Source: Trichodelitschia bisporula (Eukaryota). From it: a DNA stretch of 64,000 nt. Each line of letters opens with the position of its first letter. The stretch's first letter is position 1. Position numbers and translations under genes: made by a program. Below are positions 3,592 through 30,998 of the stretch, piece by piece. The stretch is taken from assembly GCA_010356995.1 (NCBI GenBank), contig ML996695.1, positions 877,061 to 941,060 of the forward strand, in the 5' to 3' direction. The notes beneath the pieces are model-generated. The model was given only the letters and a program-made list of their open reading frames with translations, was not told where the DNA came from and did no database searches.

Positions 3592-6024
3592 TTAGTCTTC
3601 GATATCGTCATCGTCTAAAACAAGAGCATCGACCTTCTCAGTCACTTTTCCAACCGTCCCTTTACTCCGAACCCATCCTGCCTTTTGCGGCTTTCTCCAG
3701 TCATCAGGAGCATCGGTGGTCCACTGCTCACCATTGGGCTCGTCCTCATCATCATCCCCGCCCTTCTCGCGGATCCCTCGCCCGAACATTACCACCTTGC
3801 TCAGGTCCGTCATTGAGGATGGGAAGCCGCCAGCTTTCCTTTGCCTGCCCCTCTCTATTTGTGCAAGATACGGTAGCCGCTCCAGAATCAGCTCTGGCTT
3901 CACGCGGTCACCCCCGGCATCACCGGATAACCCGACTCCCCACTCGCCGTTCCCCTTCATGCGGGCAACGACCTGCTCAACCATTTCTCCAATCTCTTCC
4001 ACCCTGCGCCACACGCGCAATGATATCGGATACAGAATATGATTAGCGTTCCCCTTCCTATAACCGCCATGCGGCTCTGCTCTTTTGACAGGATATGGAA
4101 GGTTGAACGACACGCCCGCAATAGCTACGTACGCTGAGAGATCTTCTTGCCTCAAGGCCTGCGCTGAGGCACCGACTCCGTTTCCGCTCCAACGGTCGGG
4201 GGAGAGTATGTCTGCGTCCGAGAGAGTGTCTGCACATGCGCACAGCGAGTCGAGCTCGTCCTCGGCTGAGAAGCTCTTGCAGGATGGGACGTAGTTTTCG
4301 TGAACAGTGGCAACGAACGTTGATGTGTCCGCCCCGAGTTCGGTAAGAAGCGCATCGGGAGTTATCGGTGGCTTTAACGGGCGAGCTAGATGCGGCAGAT
4401 GTGGAGGAGGCTGGGCAGCTTGAGGATCTGTGCGCTTGTTGTAAATTACCTTCCCGACGGCATGAAACAAATCAAGAGTCGAGCTCCGTATGTCAACATC
4501 GGTGGTGCCTTCGGCATCCTTGTTCAGAGGCAAAGATGGCATGAAAGACGATGAGCCTTTACCCAGAGAGTAAAATTCAAGGGTGGAGATGGCATTCCGA
4601 ATATCCCCGATCTCTGCGATGGACTTCAGCAGGGCCGTACCGGGGTTCTTCTTCTTTCCCCCAGAGGCGCGAGCCTCCTTTTCTAGTACGAGGTTTAACC
4701 CTTTGGCCATGATCGTTGGCGCTATAGGCCGGAATTCGATGGTGGTGACAGCATGATGGCCGAGGATTTCAGGGCCAAGAAGACGGTGCGCAGTAAAGCT
4801 ATCTGCCGCAGCGGTGGACGTGGACAGGAGAGTTTCAGATATTATCATTACGATCGGCGTTGCTGGCTTTGGAGCCTTGGAGAAGCTTGATGGGGATGGA
4901 GCGCTGGATTCGAGGTAGAGTTGAACGGCTTTCCGAAAGGATTGCAAGGCAGGCGAAGTCCTGGAGAAGGTGTTTGGAAATTCTTCAATCAAGATCATCC
5001 TCTTCTCCGACTCGCTAGAGTGGCTTGACTTAGGGTTTAGGGACCCATCGCCTACAAGATCCAGCGTCCCGAATGTGCCAGATCGGAGCATGAAATCCTC
5101 AAACTGCGCGGACATCGAAACAAATCCCTCATCTGATTGCATTGTGCCTGTAGGATTGCGCCACTCGTTGATCCGGAGGCCTAAAACCCGCGCCAGAAGC
5201 TGGACAGTGGTCGTCTTGCCGGAGCCAGCTGGGCCTTTGAGAAGCAGAAGCCGCTGGTTTCTCCGCGCTCCGCATACAACTCCTTCAATCCAACTCCTGA
5301 CATCATCGACCTTTTTCTTATGGACAGCCAGCTCTGAGATGGACACTGGGGCAAATCTCTCCATCCACGGTCGAGAAGCTTCGGGTTCTGGTTTCGCCGA
5401 CGGCTGTGTAGACGCGGCTGGGGTGGACGCCTTAAATCCATTCCTGGTCTTAAGGAATTTCTGGCTCGCTCGAGGAGGATCGTTTTCCTCTTCACGAATG
5501 AGGGTATCCACCTTCCTCTTCGCAGTTCGCAAAGGAATTGGCCTGCTGGTTATGGTGGGCTTCTGGTCGGCCAGCCTGATCATTTCCTCGTCGAGCGAGT
5601 CATCGTCCTCGATCAAGTCCTCTTCCATGTCCAAGCTTGGAGTTGGCGTTGGGCCTCTGAGGCTAGGCGACGCGCGCCTCTGCGCCTGCGACTGTTGTCG
5701 TTGCGTCGCAGCATTGAAGAAGGAGAGTATCGAGCGCTCCTTGCCCGGAGACTTGGTGGGCCTGGGAGGCTGCGCCTTGCGCTTCTTAGGTGAGGGAGAA
5801 AACTGGACGTCGGGTTGAGGGGATGCGATTCGGTTCGAGGATCGCAACTGGCGCTGCTTCAGCGGTGACTTCGTCGGAGGGTTGGCCGAACTCGAAGGTG
5901 CTGTGATCCGTTTTGAGAGGGGTCTCGAAGGTGGAGCTTCGGATAAGCGGGTGGGTTTAGCATGCGGCTCGTCGTCGTCCTCGGATGAAATGACAATGGG
6001 CCGCTCGCCGCGCTTTGGGGCCAT
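3592..6024 (-). CDS. RAD17: Checkpoint clamp loader subunit Rad17 (S. cerevisiae Rad24)
   Basis: 810-aa ORF: PW.ERFAP....ELAVHKKKV, Walker A GPAGSGKTT, ILIEEFPN, GDIRNAI, LFHAVGKVIYNKR, acidic DDDIED C-terminus. Confidence 0.95.
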   Translation of the reverse strand: MAPKRGERPIVISSEDDDEPHAKPTRLSEAPPSRPLSKRITAPSSSANPPTKSPLKQRQLRSSNRIASPQPDVQFSPSPKKRKAQPPRPTKSPGKERSILSFFNAATQRQQSQAQRRASPSLRGPTPTPSLDMEEDLIEDDDSLDEEMIRLADQKPTITSRPIPLRTAKRKVDTLIREEENDPPRASQKFLKTRNGFKASTPAASTQPSAKPEPEASRPWMERFAPVSISELAVHKKKVDDVRSWIEGVVCGARRNQRLLLLKGPAGSGKTTTVQLLARVLGLRINEWRNPTGTMQSDEGFVSMSAQFEDFMLRSGTFGTLDLVGDGSLNPKSSHSSESEKRMILIEEFPNTFSRTSPALQSFRKAVQLYLESSAPSPSSFSKAPKPATPIVMIISETLLSTSTAAADSFTAHRLLGPEILGHHAVTTIEFRPIAPTIMAKGLNLVLEKEARASGGKKKNPGTALLKSIAEIGDIRNAISTLEFYSLGKGSSSFMPSLPLNKDAEGTTDVDIRSSTLDLFHAVGKVIYNKRTDPQAAQPPPHLPHLARPLKPPITPDALLTELGADTSTFVATVHENYVPSCKSFSAEDELDSLCACADTLSDADILSPDRWSGNGVGASAQALRQEDLSAYVAIAGVSFNLPYPVKRAEPHGGYRKGNANHILYPISLRVWRRVEEIGEMVEQVVARMKGNGEWGVGLSGDAGGDRVKPELILERLPYLAQIERGRQRKAGGFPSSMTDLSKVVMFGRGIREKGGDDDEDEPNGEQWTTDAPDDWRKPQKAGWVRSKGTVGKVTEKVDALVLDDDDIED

Positions 6025-19667: not shown

Positions 19668-21484
19668 ATGGCGCCGGTATCATTGCTGGACCTTGTGAGC
19701 ACGCTGCCCGCCACCGACGGCTGGGGTCCCCCTCCCTCCACTGAGACCACACTCGATGGCGTTCCCTATGCTCCCTACAGCAAAGCGGACAAGCTTGGCC
19801 GCATGGCCGACTGGACTGAGGGGAAGGATCGTGAGCGGGGCGGACGGCAACAATACGGAAACCGCAATTACAGAGGTGCGCATATGTTTCTTTCCTGTGC
19901 GACCAAGCATTAATGAGTTTCAGATCAACAAATCTATGGCGCGGGCCAGACGAACAATCCGTTTGCCATCCAAGTCGCAGAGGAGGAAGCTACGTTCTCG
20001 GTTGTCGACAACACCCGCACTTCGGCACGCGGACGGGGCTTCGGTCGTGGTGGAGGCACCGTGTTCCGCGGCCGTGGGCAGCGGGGCGCCGCTACCCAGC
20101 GTGGCGGGCGGGGTACCTTCCAGCGCGTTGGCGGTGGTCGTGGTGGCCAGGGCGGCTATGATTCTCGGGGCGGCCGTGGCGGTCGCGGTGGACGGCGGTT
20201 CGGCTACCGGGATGACAAGCCTCAGCGGAATCGTGATGCCTCTATCCAGGTTAAACCTGACTGGACGCTGCTCGAGGAGATTGACTTTGCTCGGTTAACC
20301 AAGCTGAGCCTTGATACTCCGGATGGCGATGACATCGACAGCTACGGCTTTCTTTACTTCTATGACCGCTCGTACGACAAGCAGCCTGGCACCAAGACGT
20401 CCGAGCGGAAACTCCAGGTGCTCGAGCGCGCGGCGTACAATGTCACGACATCGAGCGATCCTATCATCCAGGAGCTGGCTGAGAAGGAGGAGGGCACCAT
20501 CTTCGCTACTGACAGCATTCTGTCAATGCTCATGTGCGCTCCCCGCAGTGTGTACTCGTGGGATCTCGTCATCACGCGGCAAGGCGACAAGGTCTTCATC
20601 GACAAGCGTGAAGGCTCGACGCTGGACATGGTCACGGTCAACGAGAACGCTGCAGATGCTCCGCTTGAGCTGTCCGAGGGCAACAAGGACACGATCAACA
20701 GCCCGGGCGCCCTGATGATGGAGGCGACGCACATCAACAACGTCTTCCCGATCCAGGTTGTCGTCGAGTCGGAGACAGCCAAGCGCGAGATGCCTAACGA
20801 GCATCCCTTCTACAACCCTGCCGAGGAGACGGACCCTGCCGCATCCAAGGCCTACAAGTACCGCCGTTTCGACCTGTCGCTTGCGCAGGATGAGGAGCCC
20901 ATGCACCTGATCGTGCGCACGGAGCTCGACGCCGTGCTTAAGAACAATATCAGCGGCGAGGATCAGTTCCTTACCATCAAGGCGCTGAATGAGTTTGACA
21001 GCAAGGCGCCTGGCAGCGGTGGTGCGCTTGACTGGCGGTCGAAGCTGGCGTCGCAGCGTGGTGCTGTCGTGGCTACCGAGATGAAGAACAACAGCTGCAA
21101 GTTGGCGCGCTGGACGGTGCAGAGCATTCTGGCCAAGGCGGACATGATGAAGCTTGGGTATGTATTCTTGTCCTCCACATGGATCTCAACTAACGAGCTA
21201 GCTTCGTTTCCCGCATCAACCCGCGCAACCCCAACGACCACATGATCCTCGGCGTGCTGGGCTACAAGCCGCGCGACTTCGCGGCGCAGATGAATCTCAA
21301 CCTGGCTAATGGATGGGGTATTGTTCGCACTATCGTCGACATGGTGCTCAAGATGGGCGACGGCAAGTATGTGCTCGTCAAGGACCCGAACAAGAACGTA
21401 CTGCGCTTGTACTCGGTTCCGGTTGATACCTTCGAGGAGGAAGAGGCTGCGCCGATCAAGGGTGACGATGCGGTCGAGGAGTAG
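19668..21484 (+). CDS. eIF3d: Translation initiation factor eIF3 subunit D
   Basis: [24 protein letters not shown] region, [26 protein letters not shown]; introns 19876-19923 and 21158-21201. Confidence 0.97.
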
Positions 21485-21815
21485 GGTACTCGGGGTTGGG
21501 ATGCGTGATTAGCCGTAGGGATTCTGGGCGGAATCGGCAGGGTGCGGACGGTTGCATCGGGGTAGGTCCATAGACACGAATTATGTGCTGTCATCTGCTT
21601 GCGCGTCTCAGGTGCTGGTATCTAATGTGAAATCTGCTCATCTGTAAATTCCGTGACAAGGATCCAGCCTTGCCGGCCTGGCATCCCGTCTTACCTCCGC
21701 CTCCACTCGCCGGAGCCGGGTCAACGAATTCCCAGCTCGCGCATTTCTCAGCAACGGGTCATTGTTCGTCGACGCTTTTCGTCCGCAACTCATACCTCAA
21801 TTGCACAAGCACATC

Positions 21816-22201
21816 ATGAGCGCTGTCAAGACATGTACGTCCCCTCCTGTCCACTCCGAATTCCTAATTCTGCTCCTCCTCCTGCCCCCGCTCCCACGCA
21901 ATGCCACCCGCTAACCCGTCCGCCGTAGCAATCGCCACCACCGCGGCCGCGGCCGCAGCTCCCGCAACCATGAGCGGCGAAGCCTGCCCCGCGAAGCCGA
22001 AGGTACACACTACCACAATTGTCCCTTGCCTCGAAGGAAAGCGCTAACATCCCGCAGCCCTGCTGCGTATGCATAGACGAAAAAGCCGCGCGCGACGAAT
22101 GCATGCTCTTCAGCCGCAGTGACGACGCGGCAGGCGAGTGCAAGGACCTCGTATCGCGGTACCGGAGTTGCATGGCCGGATTCGGGTTCCAGGTCAACTA
22201 A
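21816..22201 (+). CDS. COX17: Cytochrome c oxidase copper chaperone Cox17
   Basis: Two introns; spliced KPKPCCVCIDEKAARDEC...C...YRSCMAGFGF (CCxC plus twin CX9C). Confidence 0.93.
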
Positions 22202-22424
22202 AGCCACCTCCAGAATGGCGGCGGAAAACGGAACATATACCTGGCGTTTAGTGTGGGCTCGAGAAAGAGTTATGAATGGAATGGCGGAAAGCGTGTACAA
22301 TATGCATAGATGCGCCGCGTAGACAGGGTTGAACAGCAATATCTCACTCCTCTCATGTTCATGCATTTTATTCTATCCACGTACAGACCGGGTATCATGC
22401 AACCAACTCCCAAAGCCAACAGAT

Positions 22425-24246
22425 CTACTCTTCCTTCCGCTTCTCCTCCACCCCTGCAACATACCCCCCTTGCACAAGCAACCGCCCCAAACACCACAAA
22501 TAACACAGCCCGAACCCCCCAGCGCCAACAAGCACATTCACTACAACCCACAAGTCCGGCTTCCCCTCCGGCGGCGGCACCAGCGCCTCAAGCACATGCC
22601 ACGCTACCATAACGGAATAAACATCCAGATGCACCACCTTCGTCAGCAACCCGATGTGCCCGCGCTCGGACTTACGATACGCGCTCAGCGAAAACGGCGG
22701 CAAGCCGAGGAGCCACGCCCACAGCGGGAGCAGCACGGCATACGGCACCGCCAACCCATCCCTCCGCAGCAGCGGGAAAAGCGTCCACGCGCCAAGCACA
22801 TTCGCAAAGCCGACCCATGTGCGCACGGGGGCGGCGAGCCCGCCCTTGCCGCCGAGCAGCATGGTCATGGGGAGGAGAGGGAGGAGGATGTTTTTCTCGT
22901 GCACCTGGTAGGCGCAGAGGAAGAAGCCCCATGCCGTTGTTGCTGTGGCGAGGGGGAGGAGGTCCTTGCGCGGTCGGTGGAGGAGGATTAGTAGGGGCGG
23001 GAGGATGGCAGTAGTTGTGGCGGCGAGGGCGGCGCGTTGGACTAGGACTTGTGGGTAGATGTGTAGCTTGTGGAAGGTGTGGAGGGCGCACCAAACGTTT
23101 GCAACTTTGTCTTCGAAGAGGCCGCGCGCGAAGGGGAAGATGCGGTGGATGGATTGCGTGAGCTGGAAGATGGGGGCGAAGTACCAAGCCTTGGGATTCA
23201 GGGGAGGTAGGACGGAGAGGAGAGGCGGGTTGGTGGCTCCTTTGATGGTTATGCCCCGGCGAGCGTCGTAGATAGCGCCGAGGAGAAGCGGGGCGAAAAG
23301 CAGGCCGAAGGAGAGGACGGTCACGAGGGCGATGCTGATGAAGCGTGAGAGGTTGATCTTGGGGCTGATGCAGCTCCCAAGAAGGTAGGCGAAGATGGCC
23401 GGCGCGTAGAAGAGGGCCATTTGCTTGAAGCCGAGGGCTGCGACAAAGAAGACGCACGCCCAGCGCAGGCGGCCGGCTATCATGCTTGATAAACTTGCCA
23501 GGCTGAAACCCAGCATCACTGTGTTATATTGAAAGTGGCCGTGGTCGATCAGAAGGGTGCTGGGCTGCATGAGGATAGCCACTAGCGCGATGGAGCTCTC
23601 CCACGAGCTGACGCTTTCGAGACGAGATATCCGGCGGAGGAACACCACGACGGCGGGGATGTATATGAAGTACTCGGAGAGGAGAACAGTGCCGCGCATG
23701 TAGACTTTCAAAAGGGAGTCGTCGAGACCACGGGAGGCGTCGAGCGCAAACCATGACGGTTCAATGAGCGAGCCACTGACGGGTCAGCAAGGCTACATTG
23801 CAGCAAGCTACACTTACACTTTGCCGAGCAGCCAACTATGGTAGGCTGTGAGGGGCGGATAGTCCAGTCCCCACCATTGTAGATCATAAAAGTACCATTG
23901 ACTGATGGGCAGGTGGATTGTAAGCTCCATCCAATGTCGCTGTGCCTCAAAGTCACCGTGCATCGGGGGAGCTTGGTATCCTAGACAACATGTTACTAAA
24001 GGAGATGGGACAAAACAAGCAGTACCAACCGGAGTATGTCCACAGTCCCGTAGCCCAGCGGAAGAGGGCGACTGTGAGAAGTACAGAAGGGAGCACGAAC
24101 CACAGCGAGAGTCCCTTTGCAGGCCAGAGGAAAGCGGCGAGAGGGAAAGCCGGTTTCCGCTGGCCATTGGCTTCTACGACGCTACCATTGTAGGTGATGC
24201 CGCGACGCTTCCGAGGTTTGTGAGACGTCCTGGCGGAGGAGGACAT
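22425..24246 (-). CDS. ALG6: Dol-P-Glc:Man9GlcNAc2-PP-Dol alpha-1,3-glucosyltransferase
   Basis: [58 protein letters not shown]; introns 23981-24029 and 23776-23817. Confidence 0.96.
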
Positions 24247-24859
24247 GATGGGATGTGGTAGTTTGAGCTGTCGTCCTGAAGGTCTCAGGATCTCCAAATC
24301 CTGGACGTGGTGTTGAGCTTCCAGTAGGATTGACATCACATGACTGGGCCATCGGGCGAGCAGCTGCGGTGTGGTCCGTGCCGAAAGTGCCAGGGTACTT
24401 TTTGTGGATTAGCGCGCTTCCCTGCTTCCCTTGGCCCCGCACCTCGCACACGCTAACCACGGAAGTGCGAGAGGCGACAGGCGGTGAGGGGGCTGGACGA
24501 GTGGCTGGGCGCTGATTTTTTTCTGCCACAAGAAAAGTTTCCCTTCAAGTAGCAGTCGCATTGCTCCCGTTATCTTCTCCTCTTCTTCCTCACGCTCCAA
24601 CTTCTTCCCAACCTCAATCCATCTTCTTCCCTCCCATCTCTTGTTCATTGTCACCTGTGGGCAGTTTCGAATCAAACAGATAAACCTTTAAGTCTATCTA
24701 TCAGTGGTTACTAGAGGGTCAGAGGGCTCAGTTAAGCACACATTCAAGTGGTTCGTCGGCTTTCCATTCTTGGTTTTATCTGCGCTTCATTGCGCCGTCC
24801 GTGATTCTGTGGGCTCGAGGGTTCTGTGGGCTTGTTGACATGCGCATCACTCATCTCGG

Positions 24860-25110
24860 CCGCTTGTGGGAACACATGCCTTGATGGCGCTTACTTTGTG
24901 GTCTTGTGGGCTTTGCCGCTTCATGCGGGCTCGAGATCTGAGGGTTGTCGCCGTTACCAGCGCAGCGCATCTGAATATGGCCCCGGCCGCATCATGATGA
25001 CGCTGCGTTTAGCTCGTCTTTGCAAAAAGACAGACCTTGCCGCGTTTTGCATGAGACTTCGAGTCTCGGAGGGCCTTTGAGCGATGCTTCATCTACTTTA
25101 CGACTGAAGC
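24860..25110 (+). ncRNA. Candidate intronic structured RNA with box C/D motifs (snoRNA-like) in the 5'-UTR intron of NSR1
   Basis: Predicted intron 24751-25141 (GTTCGT...TACTGAC...CAG); CTGA 24971, ATGATGA 24994, CTGA 25104; several hairpins. 5' boundary uncertain. Confidence 0.55.
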
Positions 25111-25154
25111 TGCTCCATGACAGACTACTGACTTATTCCAGAACCAGAATCACC

Positions 25155-26778
25155 ATGGGTAAATCAGTGGACAAGAAGGCGCCGAAGACGGCGAAGCCGG
25201 CCAAGGCTGCCCCCGTCAAGGCTGCTGCCGTTGTCAAGGAAGGTCGCGTCACCAAGCCTGCGCAGGCTCCCAAGGCCAAGGCTAAGGAGACTGCAAAGGC
25301 CGTGGCCACCAAGGTCGAGGGCAAGGGCAAGAAGGACAAGTCGAAGAAGAAGGAGCCCACTCCCGAGCCGGAGTCGGAGAGCGAGGCCAGCAGCTCGAGC
25401 TCTGACAGCTCCGACAGCGAGGAGGAGGCCAAGCCTGTGGTCAAGACCAACGGTGCGGCTAAGGCTGCTGTCAAGACCAACGGCGCGGCTAAGGCGGCCA
25501 AGGTCGTCAAGAAGGCCGAGTCCAGCTCCGATGAGAGCAGTGACGACACCTCTGACAGCGAGGAGGAGGCTAAGCCTGCTGCGAAGGCCGCCGCTAAGGC
25601 CGACTCGGACTCTGACTCATCTGACTCTGATTCCGAGATGGAGGATGTAGCTGCGGCTACCACTACGTCTGAGGAGACTGCTACCGCGGCCTCGGACTCG
25701 AGCGATTCGGATAGCGATTCGGATGCTGAGGAGAAGCCTGCGAAGGCTGCCGCTGCTGAGGTATGTACCATTCTCCCTGATCATGAGAATACCGCTGACC
25801 CATTCAGACCTCTGATTCCGATTCTGACTCTGACTCTTCTTCCGACTCTGACTCTGAGGATGTCGAGGTGAAGCCCGAGCCTGCCTCCAAGAAGCGCAAG
25901 GCCGAGACCGAGGCCGCGCCTGCCGCTAAGAAGAACAAGTCGGCAGAACTGGATGGCCGTGAGAGCAAGAACCTCTTCGTCGGAAACCTGTCGTGGAACG
26001 TCGATGAGGATACTCTGCGTGCCGAGTTCGAGGAGTTTGGCGAGATCATTGGTTGCCGCGTCATGACAGACAAGATGTCCGGCCGTTCCAAGGGGTAAGC
26101 GTGCTCCTCTGTCTATCAACCTTTGCTAATCCATTTAGCTTCGGCTATGTCGAGTTCTCTGAGCTTGATGATGCTGTCAAGGCTATGACCACCAAGTCTG
26201 GTGCTCTGCTCGATGGCCGCAACATCAACGTCGACTACAGTGTCCCGCGCCCCCAGGGTGACTCCAACGGCAATCCCCGTGAGCGCCAGGATGCCCGCGC
26301 TAGCAAGTATGGTGACAAGCCCAGCACCCCGAGTGACACCCTGTTCGTCGGCAACATCTCCTTCGATGCCACTCCCGACATGATCTCTGAGGAGTTCGGC
26401 AAGTACGGCAGCATCACCCGCGTGTCGCTTCCCACCGACCGCGAGACTGGTGCGCCCAAGGGCTTCGGCTACGTTGGCTTCAGCTCCATCGACGAGGCCA
26501 AGGCTGCTCTCGATGCGCTGTCCGGTGCCGAGATCGCTGGCCGCAACATTCGTCTTGACTACGCTGCTCCCCGTGACGACAGCGGCGCCGGTGGTGGCCG
26601 TGGTGGCGGCTTCCGTGGTGGCCGTGGCGGCGGTGACCGTGGTGGCCGTGGTGGCTTCGGTCGCGGTGGTGGTCGTGGTCGCGGTGGTGACCGTGGCCGT
26701 GGTGGTCGTGGGGGCTTCAGCTCCACCAACCGTGGCGGCTTTGGTGACTTCAAGGGCCAGCGCAAGTCTTTCGACTAA
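25155..26778 (+). CDS. NSR1: Nucleolin-like protein (Nsr1/Gar2)
   Basis: Lys/Ala and Ser/Asp-rich N-terminus, two RRMs (LFVGNLSW...SKGFGYVEF; LFVGNISF...KGFGYV), RGG tail ending FKGQRKSFD; introns 25761-25807 and 26095-26138. Confidence 0.96.
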
Positions 26779-27919: not shown

Positions 27920-29719
27920 ATGCATCTTATCAAACTCTGCGTCGCGGCTGCCGCACTCGTGGCCGCCGTGCCGGCAGGCACGCAGGAAAGGGGCCCGAAT
28001 TCTTGTGTACGTCCCTTCCCTCCGAGCTGTGACAGCTCGATAACAGCTCGGCTAACAAACCCCAGTGCAGCGCCCTCTCTACCATTCTCCCCGGCAAGGT
28101 CATCACGGAAGCAAGCAATGACACGGCCTATACCGCTATGGGGAAGACCTACGCCTCCAGCCGCGCCGGTGACCTCCAGCCCGGCTGCTTCGTCCTCCCT
28201 GAGAATGCGCAGGATGTAGCCGCCGCCGTGGGACTGCTCGGGCAGGATCGCTGGACGCGAGTTGACGAGTGTAAGTTCGCAGTCAGGGCGGGCGGACACA
28301 CCCCCTGGCCTGGGGCAAACAATATCGAGCGCGGCGTCACGATCGATCTTTCGAAGCTGAAGGAGGTGACGCCTAGTCCGGACCGGAGCTGGCTTGCGGT
28401 CGGCGCGGGCAATCGCTGGCTCGAGGTATATTCGAAGATTGAGCCGCTGGGGCTCGCGGTCTCTGGGGGTCGCTGGGGAAATGTGGGCGTGGGTGGGTTA
28501 TTGACGGGTGGTACGTGTGCCCTGTGCTCTCATGGAGTAGTCAGGGACTGACGCACCAGGTGGCCTCTCCTTCTTCCAAGGCCGCGAAGGTCCCGCCTGC
28601 GACGGCGTATTGCGACACGAAGTGATCCTTGCCAACGGCACAATCATCTACGCCGACCGCACACAGCATGCGGATCTTCACCGCGCACTCAAGGGCGGGA
28701 ATAACAACGTCGGCATTGTAACGCGTTTTGACCTGAAGCTCTTCCCGCAAGGCCCCATCTTTGGCGGGCTTCTCATGTCCGCGTTACCAAAGCAGAAGTC
28801 CCTGCAGTGGTTCGAAGATTTTGCGAATTCGTCCCGGACCGATTCCCGCGCTATGGTTATGTATGGCTACTTCAACGCCCTCGGGCAGTGGTTCTCCGGC
28901 GGCCTGGCTACGTATTCGGAGCCTGATCCGAATCCGCCTATTTTCCGCCCGCTCCTGGAAGCGCCTGTCACAGCCGCCGCGCTGCTTGGTGGGTTCAATA
29001 TATCTGCCTTCTTGCCTGCGTGGCTGCTGCCCGCCGGCACGCCCGCCCCCGCCGCTGGTACGCCCATACAGACCGGAAGCAACCCCGCCCTGATGCCCGA
29101 GGGCGGCTTCGCGCTCCCCGCGACCATGAACATTACCAGCTACGCCGCCATCGCGGAAGCCAATGCCCGGAGCACCCCGGCCGGCGCGACAGGCGGGCTG
29201 ATGCGCAGCCTGTTCAGCACCTTCTCTCACGCGAACAGCGCAACGTACCAAGACGCTTTGCTGAAGCTGCACGATGAGTGGCAGCGCAAGTTGCCGTTCC
29301 TCGCGGGCGGGGGGCTGATTTTCCAACCTTTGTGGCGCGGGGCCCGCGACGCGAGTGCGGCGGCGAGTGGAGGGAATGTGCTCGGCTTGGAGTGGGAGGG
29401 GCGGGATATCGTGATTGTGCTGGTGCAGATAGGTTGGGTAGGGCAGGGGAATGACGATGCGGTTAGGGAGTGGAGTAGAGGGTTTATTAAGGCGGCGCAG
29501 GATCTGGCAAAGACGATGGGCGTATACAGCCCGTACGTGTATGCGAATTATGCGGCGGAGTGGCAGGATGTTATTGGCGGGTATGGGGAGGAGGCGAGGG
29601 CGCATTTGGAGAGAGTTAGTAAGTTGTATGATCCGAAAGGCGTGTTCCAGAAGAGGGTGCCCGGTGGGTTCAAGTTGAGGAGGACGGAGGGGGATTGGGC
29701 GCAGTTTGAGGGGAGGTGA
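27920..29719 (+). CDS. Secreted FAD-linked oxidoreductase, BBE-like/AA7-like
   Basis: Signal peptide, FAVRAGGH, VTIDLS, VGVGGLLTGGG, ALKGG.NN.GIVT, Y.NYA, YDP.GVFQ...PGGFKL; introns 28007-28065 and 28511-28559. Confidence 0.92.
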
Positions 29720-30254
29720 TGGGGTGAGTAATTTCATTTGCGTGGTGGGTAAAAGTAGTGTATTTCGGAACGAGGCTGAGAATGCAGCCGATGAGGCGTC
29801 TCATTGTCAAGGCTGAAGGATTCATGTCGAAATAACCGTCATCATGTGTACCGATTCTCCTTTGCTCTCCGGAACCTCTAATCTCGAGAGTTGTTGGCTT
29901 CCCTAACATGATTCCCCTTCAAAGTACTCGGTCCGTAAATGTATCGCTCAATCCGAGTCCCCGAACTCGCGTGCCGGCCCGCCCACACCCCTCTCATCCC
30001 GCGCCAAGCCTCTTCCCCGCGCAAAAATTCCGCCACCCGCTGACCTCATCGGTTGCTTTTCCCGAAAGCTCCACGATCAACGCTCAAGTCGCCAACATTT
30101 CCTTCCTATCTCCCGCCACATCTCCCTCTCATACCCGCACACACATACGCCCACCGCTCTACTCTGTGCCGGCCTCAGATCGCGCGACTTTGGTTTCGTC
30201 CCGTCTCGACACCTACATCTCGTCAACCTGAGTCGCGAGCTCAACATCGCCACA

Positions 30255-30998
30255 ATGCGCCCGCTCCTCCGCGCGCCCGCGCTCGTACGACACATCCGCA
30301 GCGCTCCCCTCCCCGCAGTTCAAGCTCGGCGATGGCGCGCCTCTCAAGCAGCCCCCGCCTCCACCTCCTCCGCCCAGCACCAACGGCAGACCCCACCGCC
30401 GCCATCCTCGCGCCCACAACCCGAGACGCCCTCCGCACCGCAGCCTCCCCCTCCCTCAACCCCCCAAACCTACTACACCCTCTTCCCCCTAACCTTCCCC
30501 CACGGCCCACCACCCGCCGGGCCCTTCACTCCACCGCTCAGCACCCTGAAACGCGAGTATCTCCGCCTACAATCTAGCGCACACCCGGATCTACACCATG
30601 GACAAGCAACCCAAGCCTCTGCAACCGTGTCCTCAGCACTCATAAACACGGCGTACAAGACGCTGGCGCACCCGCTGCACCGCGCGGAATATCTGCTTAG
30701 TTTGCGGGGCGCGGAGCCGCTGGCCGAGGCGGCGAAGATGGGGGATGCGGAGGGGGATGCGGAGTTGTTGATGGAGGTTATGGAGGTGCGGGAGGCGGTG
30801 GAGGGGGCGAGGAGTGAGGATGAGGTGCGGGGACTGATGGGGGAGAATGAGGAGAGGATTAAGGAGTGTGTTCAGGGATTGGAGGAGACGTTTGGGAGGG
30901 ATGATCTTGAGGCTGCGGCGAGGGGGGTGGTTAGATTGAGGTATTGGGTGGGCGTGGAGGATAAGTTGAAGGAGTGGGTTGGGGAGGGGGAAAGGTAG
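30255..30998 (+). CDS. JAC1: Mitochondrial Fe-S cluster co-chaperone HscB/Jac1
   Basis: Arg-rich presequence, J-domain HPD, INTAYKTL..PL.RAEYLL, LLMEVME, RLRYW. Confidence 0.93.
   Translation: MRPLLRAPALVRHIRSAPLPAVQARRWRASQAAPASTSSAQHQRQTPPPPSSRPQPETPSAPQPPPPSTPQTYYTLFPLTFPHGPPPAGPFTPPLSTLKREYLRLQSSAHPDLHHGQATQASATVSSALINTAYKTLAHPLHRAEYLLSLRGAEPLAEAAKMGDAEGDAELLMEVMEVREAVEGARSEDEVRGLMGENEERIKECVQGLEETFGRDDLEAAARGVVRLRYWVGVEDKLKEWVGEGER

Follow-up and report, generated by a model that had tools for sequence, protein, structure and literature searches.

The leader of the nucleolin/NSR1 gene of Trichodelitschia bisporula very probably acts as a cis-regulatory RNA element of some kind. An array of ten GWGGG words, which are candidate protein-binding sites (24657..25073, + strand), is spread over a non-coding first exon and a long 5'-UTR intron, and a conserved core hairpin (24858..24880) lies within it. 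Positions refer to the window, the 64,000-nt stretch of contig ML996695.1 that was analysed. Judging from sequence comparison, we lean towards Nsr1 itself as the protein that would read the array. Both the array and the core hairpin were missed by the sequence-only reading that preceded this analysis, which had taken the intron for the site of an atypical box C/D snoRNA or of a Snu13-binding splicing element. This conserved element is apparently unpublished.

The frame that opens at 25155 encodes a nucleolin/Nsr1 protein with an acidic/serine N-terminus, two RRM domains and an RGG tail (coding region 25155..26778, + strand, with introns at 25761-25807 and 26095-26138). Its best named relatives are Pezizomycotina proteins that carry the annotation nucleolin or nuclear localization sequence binding protein. 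In a quick tree built from the RRM region, it falls among Dothideomycete proteins, the nearest being from Phyllosticta (68% identity, weak support); the class labels of the loci below were taken from this tree, in which the named genera stand in the classes that we take to be theirs. Classification of the loci by sums over nearest named proteins was dropped as too noisy. The neighbouring genes in the window (19917-24300 and 28033-30998) are those for eIF3d, COX17, ALG6, a FAD-binding oxidase and an HSC20-like co-chaperone, of which ALG6 is divergent from NSR1, and no tRNA was found in the 64,000-nt window.

The leader consists of a non-coding exon 1 (24601..24750, + strand), whose start is the first contig-covered base and may differ from the true start site, and of the intron (24751..25141, + strand). 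Exon 1 has no ATG and holds three of the GWGGG words, at 24657, 24714 and 24722; the others start at 24809, 24817, 24826, 24866, 24906, 24940 and 25069. The landmarks named by the sequence-only reading, namely the minor-class donor GTTCGT (24751..24756, + strand), the branch point TACTGAC (25126-25132) with the acceptor CAG ending at 25141 (25126..25141, + strand) and the ATG at 25155, were all confirmed in the sequence. Its proposal of an unusually long, 391-nt leader intron also proved exact: in both sets, contigs from two runs of one sample, whose RNA status is a guess, join 24750 to 25142 and so leave out 391 nt bounded by GT and AG; the shorter side of this joint has 28-29 letters. The same contigs also skip the coding introns of 47 and 44 nt. 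The whole leader intron is covered as well by a separate contig in both sets, which reaches fewer than 31 letters past the junctions; in set X1, for which all 4 records were listed, both coding introns are only skipped while the leader intron is also covered. The contig depths (388 and 1043 for the intron, 1435 and 4487-5932 for the spliced form, 3631 and 9907 for exon 1) and ends (24303-24600 is left uncovered and the X1 intron contig ends at 25154) carry no weight, because contigs cannot rank gene parts or show RNA ends. A second YAG lies 6-7 nt past the acceptor (window 25139-25147) and recurs in the leaders of nine loci (L002, L003, L005, L008, L011, L013, L016, L017 and L048); it is a possible tandem acceptor, the use of which was not seen in the contigs.

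Orthologous loci were collected by a metagenome scan with a 45-protein alignment; at least 425 of 581 candidate stretches were confirmed, and the best 78 loci were used. With a threshold of E 0.002, the intron itself matched 17 of these best 78 loci, in most cases across 24720-25005. In 45 of 79 loci, this one included, a start codon was located that has at least 300 nt of sequence before it, and 31 of the 45 leaders hold 6-13 sense GWGGG words in 600 nt, the other 14 holding 0-3. On the antisense strand, the count is 0-1 in 30 of the 31 array leaders. Removal of nine near-copies left 22 non-redundant array leaders, a set chosen after the counts were known, with 6-13 words each against 0.6-1.5 in shuffles, and none of 300 shuffles reached the count of any leader. 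Both versions of the word are enriched in them (GTGGG, 136 vs 10.7 expected; GAGGG, 95 vs 11.8 expected), and the consensus across fungi reads Y-H-G-W-G-G-G-C-U-U. The array is kept even where the leaders cease to align, at Eurotiomycete- and Lecanoromycete-like loci.

It is the word, and not the G content, that is kept, since 231 of 274 GGG runs in the leaders (84%) follow GT or GA, compared with 24% in the flanks. Raw GWGGG is unspecific in this G-rich window, where 6 of 228 tiles hold ten or more. The flanked pattern YH-GWGGG-H, which was itself derived from the leaders it scores, occurs 9 times in the NSR1 tile, at most twice in each of the other 227 window tiles and at most three times in each of 246 orthologue flank tiles. 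The canonical G-quadruplex (G4) pattern (four G3 runs, loops of 1-7 nt) is found in 2 of the 22 leaders, this one not being among them. Basidiomycete-like loci showed no array; their G-rich stretches were rejected as candidates, being RGG-coding or neighbouring sequence. Genome-wide, two cluster patterns had 11 and 52 matches, the controls having 9 and 21; of the 52 places, 30 were examined, and none showed a dense array on another protein-coding gene. Two loci, L081 (G000:C3:791920-794944) and L193 (G000:C8:167972-171012), are imperfect, apparently non-coding repeats in which no gene was recognised. In each, a pyrimidine-rich region that resembles a start site is followed by a one-strand GTGGGC/GAGGGC array (9 flanked words within 500 nt in L081 and 7 in L193), and both may be repeat debris or decoy RNAs.

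The position of the array differs between lineages. In 12 loci, 5-12 sense GWGGG words lie within 600 nt past the stop codon, and in the tree these loci group with Coleophoma and Rhexocercosporidium (Leotiomycete-like) on one side of a branch with support 99; the 3'-UTR form therefore counts as one event, all of its loci being in one clade. Among the 31 loci with both ends available, the array is in the leader in 23, in the 3' UTR in 6, in neither in 2 (with cut leaders) and in both in none. A word GCCGCA accompanies the array in 9 of the 22 leaders and in 7 of 9 3' arrays (antisense, 2 and 2). In L034, L038 and L044, the array is seemingly exonic, and a short intron with a donor of the ordinary kind follows it. 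L004 and L051 have no leader array and L010 and L023 no 3' array, the other ends of these loci being cut; all four are Dothideomycete-like, L004 has a short leader intron, and they are possible losses. Behind the 3'-UTR array, 460-490 nt past the NSR1 stop, a donor-like word TGGTGAGT is found in 8 of 11 Leotiomycete-like loci (L027, L029, L030, L068, L069, L072, L074 and L078), two others ending earlier and L040 having a variant. No branch point or acceptor was seen behind it by pattern; the word could mark a regulated 3'-UTR intron.

Short hairpins accompany the words in the leader. The core hairpin (24858..24880, + strand) comprises a GGC/GCC helix, an internal loop and a UGUG-GGAA-CACA stem with a GNRA-type loop, and is common to 18 sequences, in which 92.4% of 198 cells pair and two-sided changes occur at 4 of 11 named pairs. 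The share of paired cells beats all 500 shuffles and the slid controls; the consensus fold retains 7 pairs, one with a two-sided change, so that the support comes mainly from sequence conservation. In the fold of the full-length leader, the inner stem has a probability of 0.96-0.99 and the GGC/GCC helix of 0.01. A model built from the 18 hairpins found 23 places of at least 39 bits in the window and the 78 loci, the next best having 17, and all of these places are on Dothideomycete-like branches; a short-pattern search found one copy in the genome. A second small hairpin, CCGC-UUCAU-GCGG (24916..24928, + strand; 12 sequences), pairs in 48 of 48 cells with one two-sided change, which is not significant (41 of 500 shuffles). 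The long hairpin suggested earlier at 24883-24955 has z -2.2 against shuffles, and the whole 391-nt intron folds like its shuffles (z -1.31, 9 of 100).

The donor word recurs in relatives. GTTCGT stands at the matching place in 7 other leaders and GTCAGT or GTTAGT in 8, all of them inferred donors. In this genome it is of a minor class, short-intron patterns numbering 208 for the GTTCGT type (control 175) compared with 3266 for GTRHGT (control 602). The GTCAGT/GTTAGT donors need not be weak, since they start spliced coding introns in L079, L006 and L013. Of 16 leaders, 10 have a GWGGG word that overlaps the inferred donor; the leader of this species has no such overlap. Retention of the leader intron was seen in relatives: L005 keeps it but is without the two 49-nt coding introns that its genomic partner L079 (99% identical) has, and the transcript-type contigs L007, L011 and L016 show the same against partners 80-88% identical. 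It is possible that such retention in transcript contigs comes from the choice of the assembler. In this species, retention adds ten upstream ATGs to a leader whose exon 1 has none, every one of them stopped before the main ATG, and by these ATGs the retained form may be unproductive. Upstream ATGs are absent from 6 of the 22 non-redundant array leaders, and nuclear retention or decay may therefore outweigh the upstream frames. These six leaders and the exonic arrays of L034, L038 and L044 also mean that splicing control cannot be the sole output.

We somewhat favour Nsr1 feedback as the best mechanism for the leader element, a proposal that draws on the sequence and its comparison. The strand bias, the fixed word repeated about ten times and its positional freedom point to an RNA-binding protein. 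About ten YH-GWGGG-CU words, which are spread over exon 1 and the intron with short hairpins around them, would then be putative sites of a G-rich-RNA-binding protein, most likely Nsr1. Free Nsr1 in excess of nascent pre-rRNA would load onto its own transcript and hold back the removal of the intron with the minor-class donor, and the retained RNA would be poorly translated owing to its ten upstream ATGs, or destroyed; the net effect would be a negative feedback that limits the amount of Nsr1. Yeast Nsr1 binds single-stranded TG1-3 repeats. Available data on yeast Nsr1 also describe its binding to a G4-forming oligonucleotide, for which G-runs and the RGG tail are needed (PMC7768239). Nsr1 would be the simplest reader of the array because no other gene in the scanned DNA carries the array and because the yeast protein binds such G-run oligonucleotides. 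On pre-rRNA, the accessible text of another study ties recruitment of yeast Nsr1 to 18S nt 1137-1154 and assigns the direct recognition to Nop9 (PMC5389560). Autoregulation through a protein's own intron is established for fungal RNA-binding proteins, as far as the available parts of two studies report (PMC13630204; PMC8216456). It is nearly an even question whether the array is a feedback module portable between transcript positions, with YH-GWGGG-CU as the true RNA motif of fungal Nsr1. With about the same reserve, a single sensor may have been given different outputs: in the leader intron of Dothideomycete-like fungi, in the exonic 5' UTR of Eurotiomycete- and Lecanoromycete-like ones and in the 3' UTR, ahead of the donor-like word, of Leotiomycete-like ones.

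On the other hand, all of the conservation data would fit equally well if another G-rich-RNA-binding protein (for example, a Gis2/CNBP-like, Gbp2/Hrb1-like or Npl3-like factor) read the array, or if the leader formed long-loop RNA G-quadruplexes, so that NSR1 would be tied to growth or stress with no Nsr1 feedback. The GGG runs, of which a leader has ten or more, could stack, and nucleolin and other proteins bind G4 structures, according to the available text of PMC7768239. We consider this alternative rather unlikely. A general factor should have its sites clustered on other genes, but no such cluster was found in the other window tiles or the 246 flank tiles, and the sole other dense clusters among the loci examined lie in repeats; the scarcity of canonical quadruplex patterns and the fixed flanks of the word speak against the G4 version. 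The words could also be DNA sites for a transcription factor or a chromatin organiser, as the array begins within about 60 nt of the transcript start, beside the divergent, bidirectional ALG6/NSR1 promoter. This is very improbable in view of the strict sense-strand bias, the array past the stop codon in one clade and the hairpins with kept pairing that accompany the array.

Two further alternatives concern the 3' half of the intron, where the letters named by the sequence-only reading are all present: GCGCAGCG at 24960, CTGA at 24971 and 25104, ATGATGA at 24994 and CGCTGCGTT at 25001. The hairpin at 24960..25008 (+ strand), which carries CUGA (24971) and AUGAUGA (24994), has the K-turn geometry that had been claimed for it, with a 3-nt CAU bulge, tandem GA/AG pairs, a U-U and a G-C pair and helices on both sides, as found in this species. 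Its helix pairs have probabilities of 0.97-1.0, and the stretch 24955-25012, a region picked after the fact, is very stable (z -4.6, none of 200 shuffles). It might thus bind Snu13 or another L7Ae-family protein in this lineage and tune splicing, alone or with the array, as the bulge and the GA/AG pairs are those of a C/D K-turn and the comparison set holds no close relative, the nearest protein being 68% identical over the RRMs. We hold this to be quite improbable. The boxes are not conserved: of the 21 other non-redundant leaders, one has a strict C box and none has a box pair that includes one. The site corresponds to that of a GCGC(AU)...GCGC hairpin with a variable top in Pleosporales-like leaders, and the K-turn boxes fall in this freely varying top, which the relatives form without them; the homology rests on position and the GCGCAU word only, because the alignment put this species out of register. 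Loose K-turn-like patterns number 0-10 per leader. A K-turn-like motif (CUGA-GGG...UAU-GAGGG) can arise from two GAGGG words about 300-345 nt before the ATG in L003, L011 and L013; it is gone in Pleosporales-like leaders where the words read GUGGG. A Snu13-type K-turn added to the array and linking nucleolin supply to C/D snoRNP supply in this lineage is similarly doubtful, and a Snu13-bound K-turn in an NSR1 intron would not count as autoregulation. The earlier suggestion of a regulatory element in the intron stands as a conserved, probably regulatory RNA element, but the Snu13/K-turn part of it is kept by no orthologue.

The snoRNA reading, in which the intron would hold an atypical C/D RNA or a bipartite 5.8S guide, is not supported; it fails because there is no Rfam match, the guide geometry is wrong, the boxes are unconserved and a canonical guide sits elsewhere in the genome. 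At the gathering score, no Rfam family matched the window, and a search of the intron at E up to 10 gave nothing credible, this intron scan returning one lncRNA chance match upstream (E 1.3), and nothing real was found in 8 orthologous loci, whereas true C/D RNAs of this genome do score against Rfam. The unconserved 3' part of the intron (25016..25107, + strand) holds two small hairpins, CUUCAUC and CUGA (25104), with no canonical guide recognised. Both hairpins that had been named are present (25016-25031 and 25053-25067), the first with one A fewer than quoted, and CTTCATC starts at 25087 and not at 25088. The proposed complementarity to 5.8S rRNA exists as a 9-mer and a 7-mer, but such matches are expected 0.21 and 3.5 times for a 391-nt intron and a 155-nt target and are thus within chance. 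The 9-mer CGCTGCGTT abuts the C word, with no D' after it, and forms the 3' strand of the stable helix, and the 7-mer ends 10 nt ahead of the D word CTGA at 25104; N. crassa C/D guides pair over 10-17 nt and abut D or D', by the accessible account (PMC2780460). The C word at 24994 is paired with the upstream CUGA in the local hairpin at a probability of about 1.0. The set of 21 other leaders, which lacks close relatives, has CGCTGCG in none and CTTCATC in 2, so that the check on orthologous leaders proposed earlier found the box pair and the 9-mer in 0 of 21. In the window, CTGA..RTGATGA occurs 4 times against 1.5 expected (8 of 100 shuffles).

For the 5.8S site, the canonical guide is on G000:C7 (L210:1496-1575, near 1234692), a snoRNA of the Afu_294 type (RF01506, 49.1 bits, cut-off 43) that reads C box, CGCTGCGTTCTT, one base and CTGA. 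Afu_294 of A. fumigatus and CD29 of N. crassa are box C/D guides with a 5.8S-complementary D' element, and the NSR1 intron resembles them in the letters (C)GCUGCGUU (8-9) with a C box upstream. In the true guide, however, the match is 12 nt long and lies 11 nt past the C box, with one base and then CUGA after it, whereas the 9-nt match of the intron directly adjoins the C box, lacks a D' word and is base-paired. A second C/D RNA (L210:824-912, RF01860 Afu_455, 63.2 bits) lies about 600 nt upstream of the Afu_294-like RNA. On G000:C22, an intact intronic CD11-like dual-guide C/D RNA (L209:1430-1520, near 302663) gave no hit in Rfam at E 0.1; upstream of it lies a U31b-like RNA (L209:930-1016). 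A version of the snoRNA reading that sees in the 3' half of the intron a box C/D RNA of about 115 nt (C at 24994, D at 25104), either particular to this lineage or in decay, could appeal to the spacing of the C and D words, which is that of snoRNAs, to CAGA (25031) and AUGAGA (25051) as possible D'/C' and to the occurrence of CGCTGCGTT in the true 5.8S guide of the genome. Moreover, the stretch before CTGA 25104 resembles, by eye and with two insertions, the CD11 guide for 26S Am356 in the available supplement 4 of PMC2780460, although no exact match to the intron was found by eye among the N. crassa guide-target pairs in that supplement. This version is very unlikely: besides the evidence above, the C-to-D stretch folds at chance level (z -0.89), canonical guides for both sites are found elsewhere, on G000:C7 and G000:C22, and neither boxes nor matches are conserved in orthologous leaders. 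This judgement is one of probability, since the leaders compared include no close relative and the rRNA of this species was not found in the assembly, in which 5.8S, SSU and LSU rRNA had no match; of 88 viral-contig matches to a 16-nt 5.8S word, none was in an rDNA context. The "atypical snoRNA" of Li and Breaker was considered and set aside, as it differs in host gene, mostly introns of cpc2-type G-protein genes in the accessible text (PMC5640933).

The NSR1 element may, by analogy, work like known autoregulatory introns. As in those elements, conserved sites and structure, here the GWGGG array and the core hairpin, lie in the gene's own non-coding RNA. Besides the RPL22 genes, RPL30 is a further yeast case of splicing autoregulation. 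In yeast RPL22A/B, as far as the available text describes it, an RNA-binding ribosome-biogenesis protein likewise acts on its own long intron with conserved structure and sites (PMC13630204), and a non-consensus donor in some of the yeast ribosomal-protein cases and a proposed negative feedback via intron retention are further likenesses. The NSR1 element differs from these introns in having a multi-copy linear word with small hairpins instead of one rRNA-like fold, in lying in a leader intron, an exonic 5' UTR or a 3' UTR according to lineage, and in that the binding is putative. Vertebrate nucleolin recognises the nucleolin recognition element and the ECM motif. Work on nucleolin/Nsr1 with G-rich and G4 nucleic acids is comparable in its G-run ligands and in the RRM-RGG protein of the same family, but in its accessible part concerns G4 DNA or pre-rRNA elements (PMC7768239). 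Pezizomycotina-restricted conserved elements in introns or UTRs of RNA-binding-protein genes were reported by Gao, Jones and Rivas 2021 (PMC8216456) and Li and Breaker 2017 (PMC5640933); nucleolin/NSR1 is not named (0 matches) in the available text of either. A literature search, with most subscription papers outside it, found no GWGGG RNA motif, no nucleolin sites in the protein's own fungal transcript, no Nsr1 RNA motif and no feedback control of fungal Nsr1, and the main text of the EuPRI preprint has no match to Nsr1 or nucleolin.

Finally, nucleolin/Nsr1 is a central factor of ribosome assembly, and a snoRNA in its intron, had it held, would have been a modest addition. A word repeated ten-fold on the gene's own transcript and kept across several fungal classes, on the other hand, gives a concrete candidate motif and an element ready for reporters, by which the questions of the RNA motif and of the feedback become directly testable. 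The shift of the array between the leader and the 3' UTR would be an unusual natural experiment on the rewiring of a post-transcriptional circuit.
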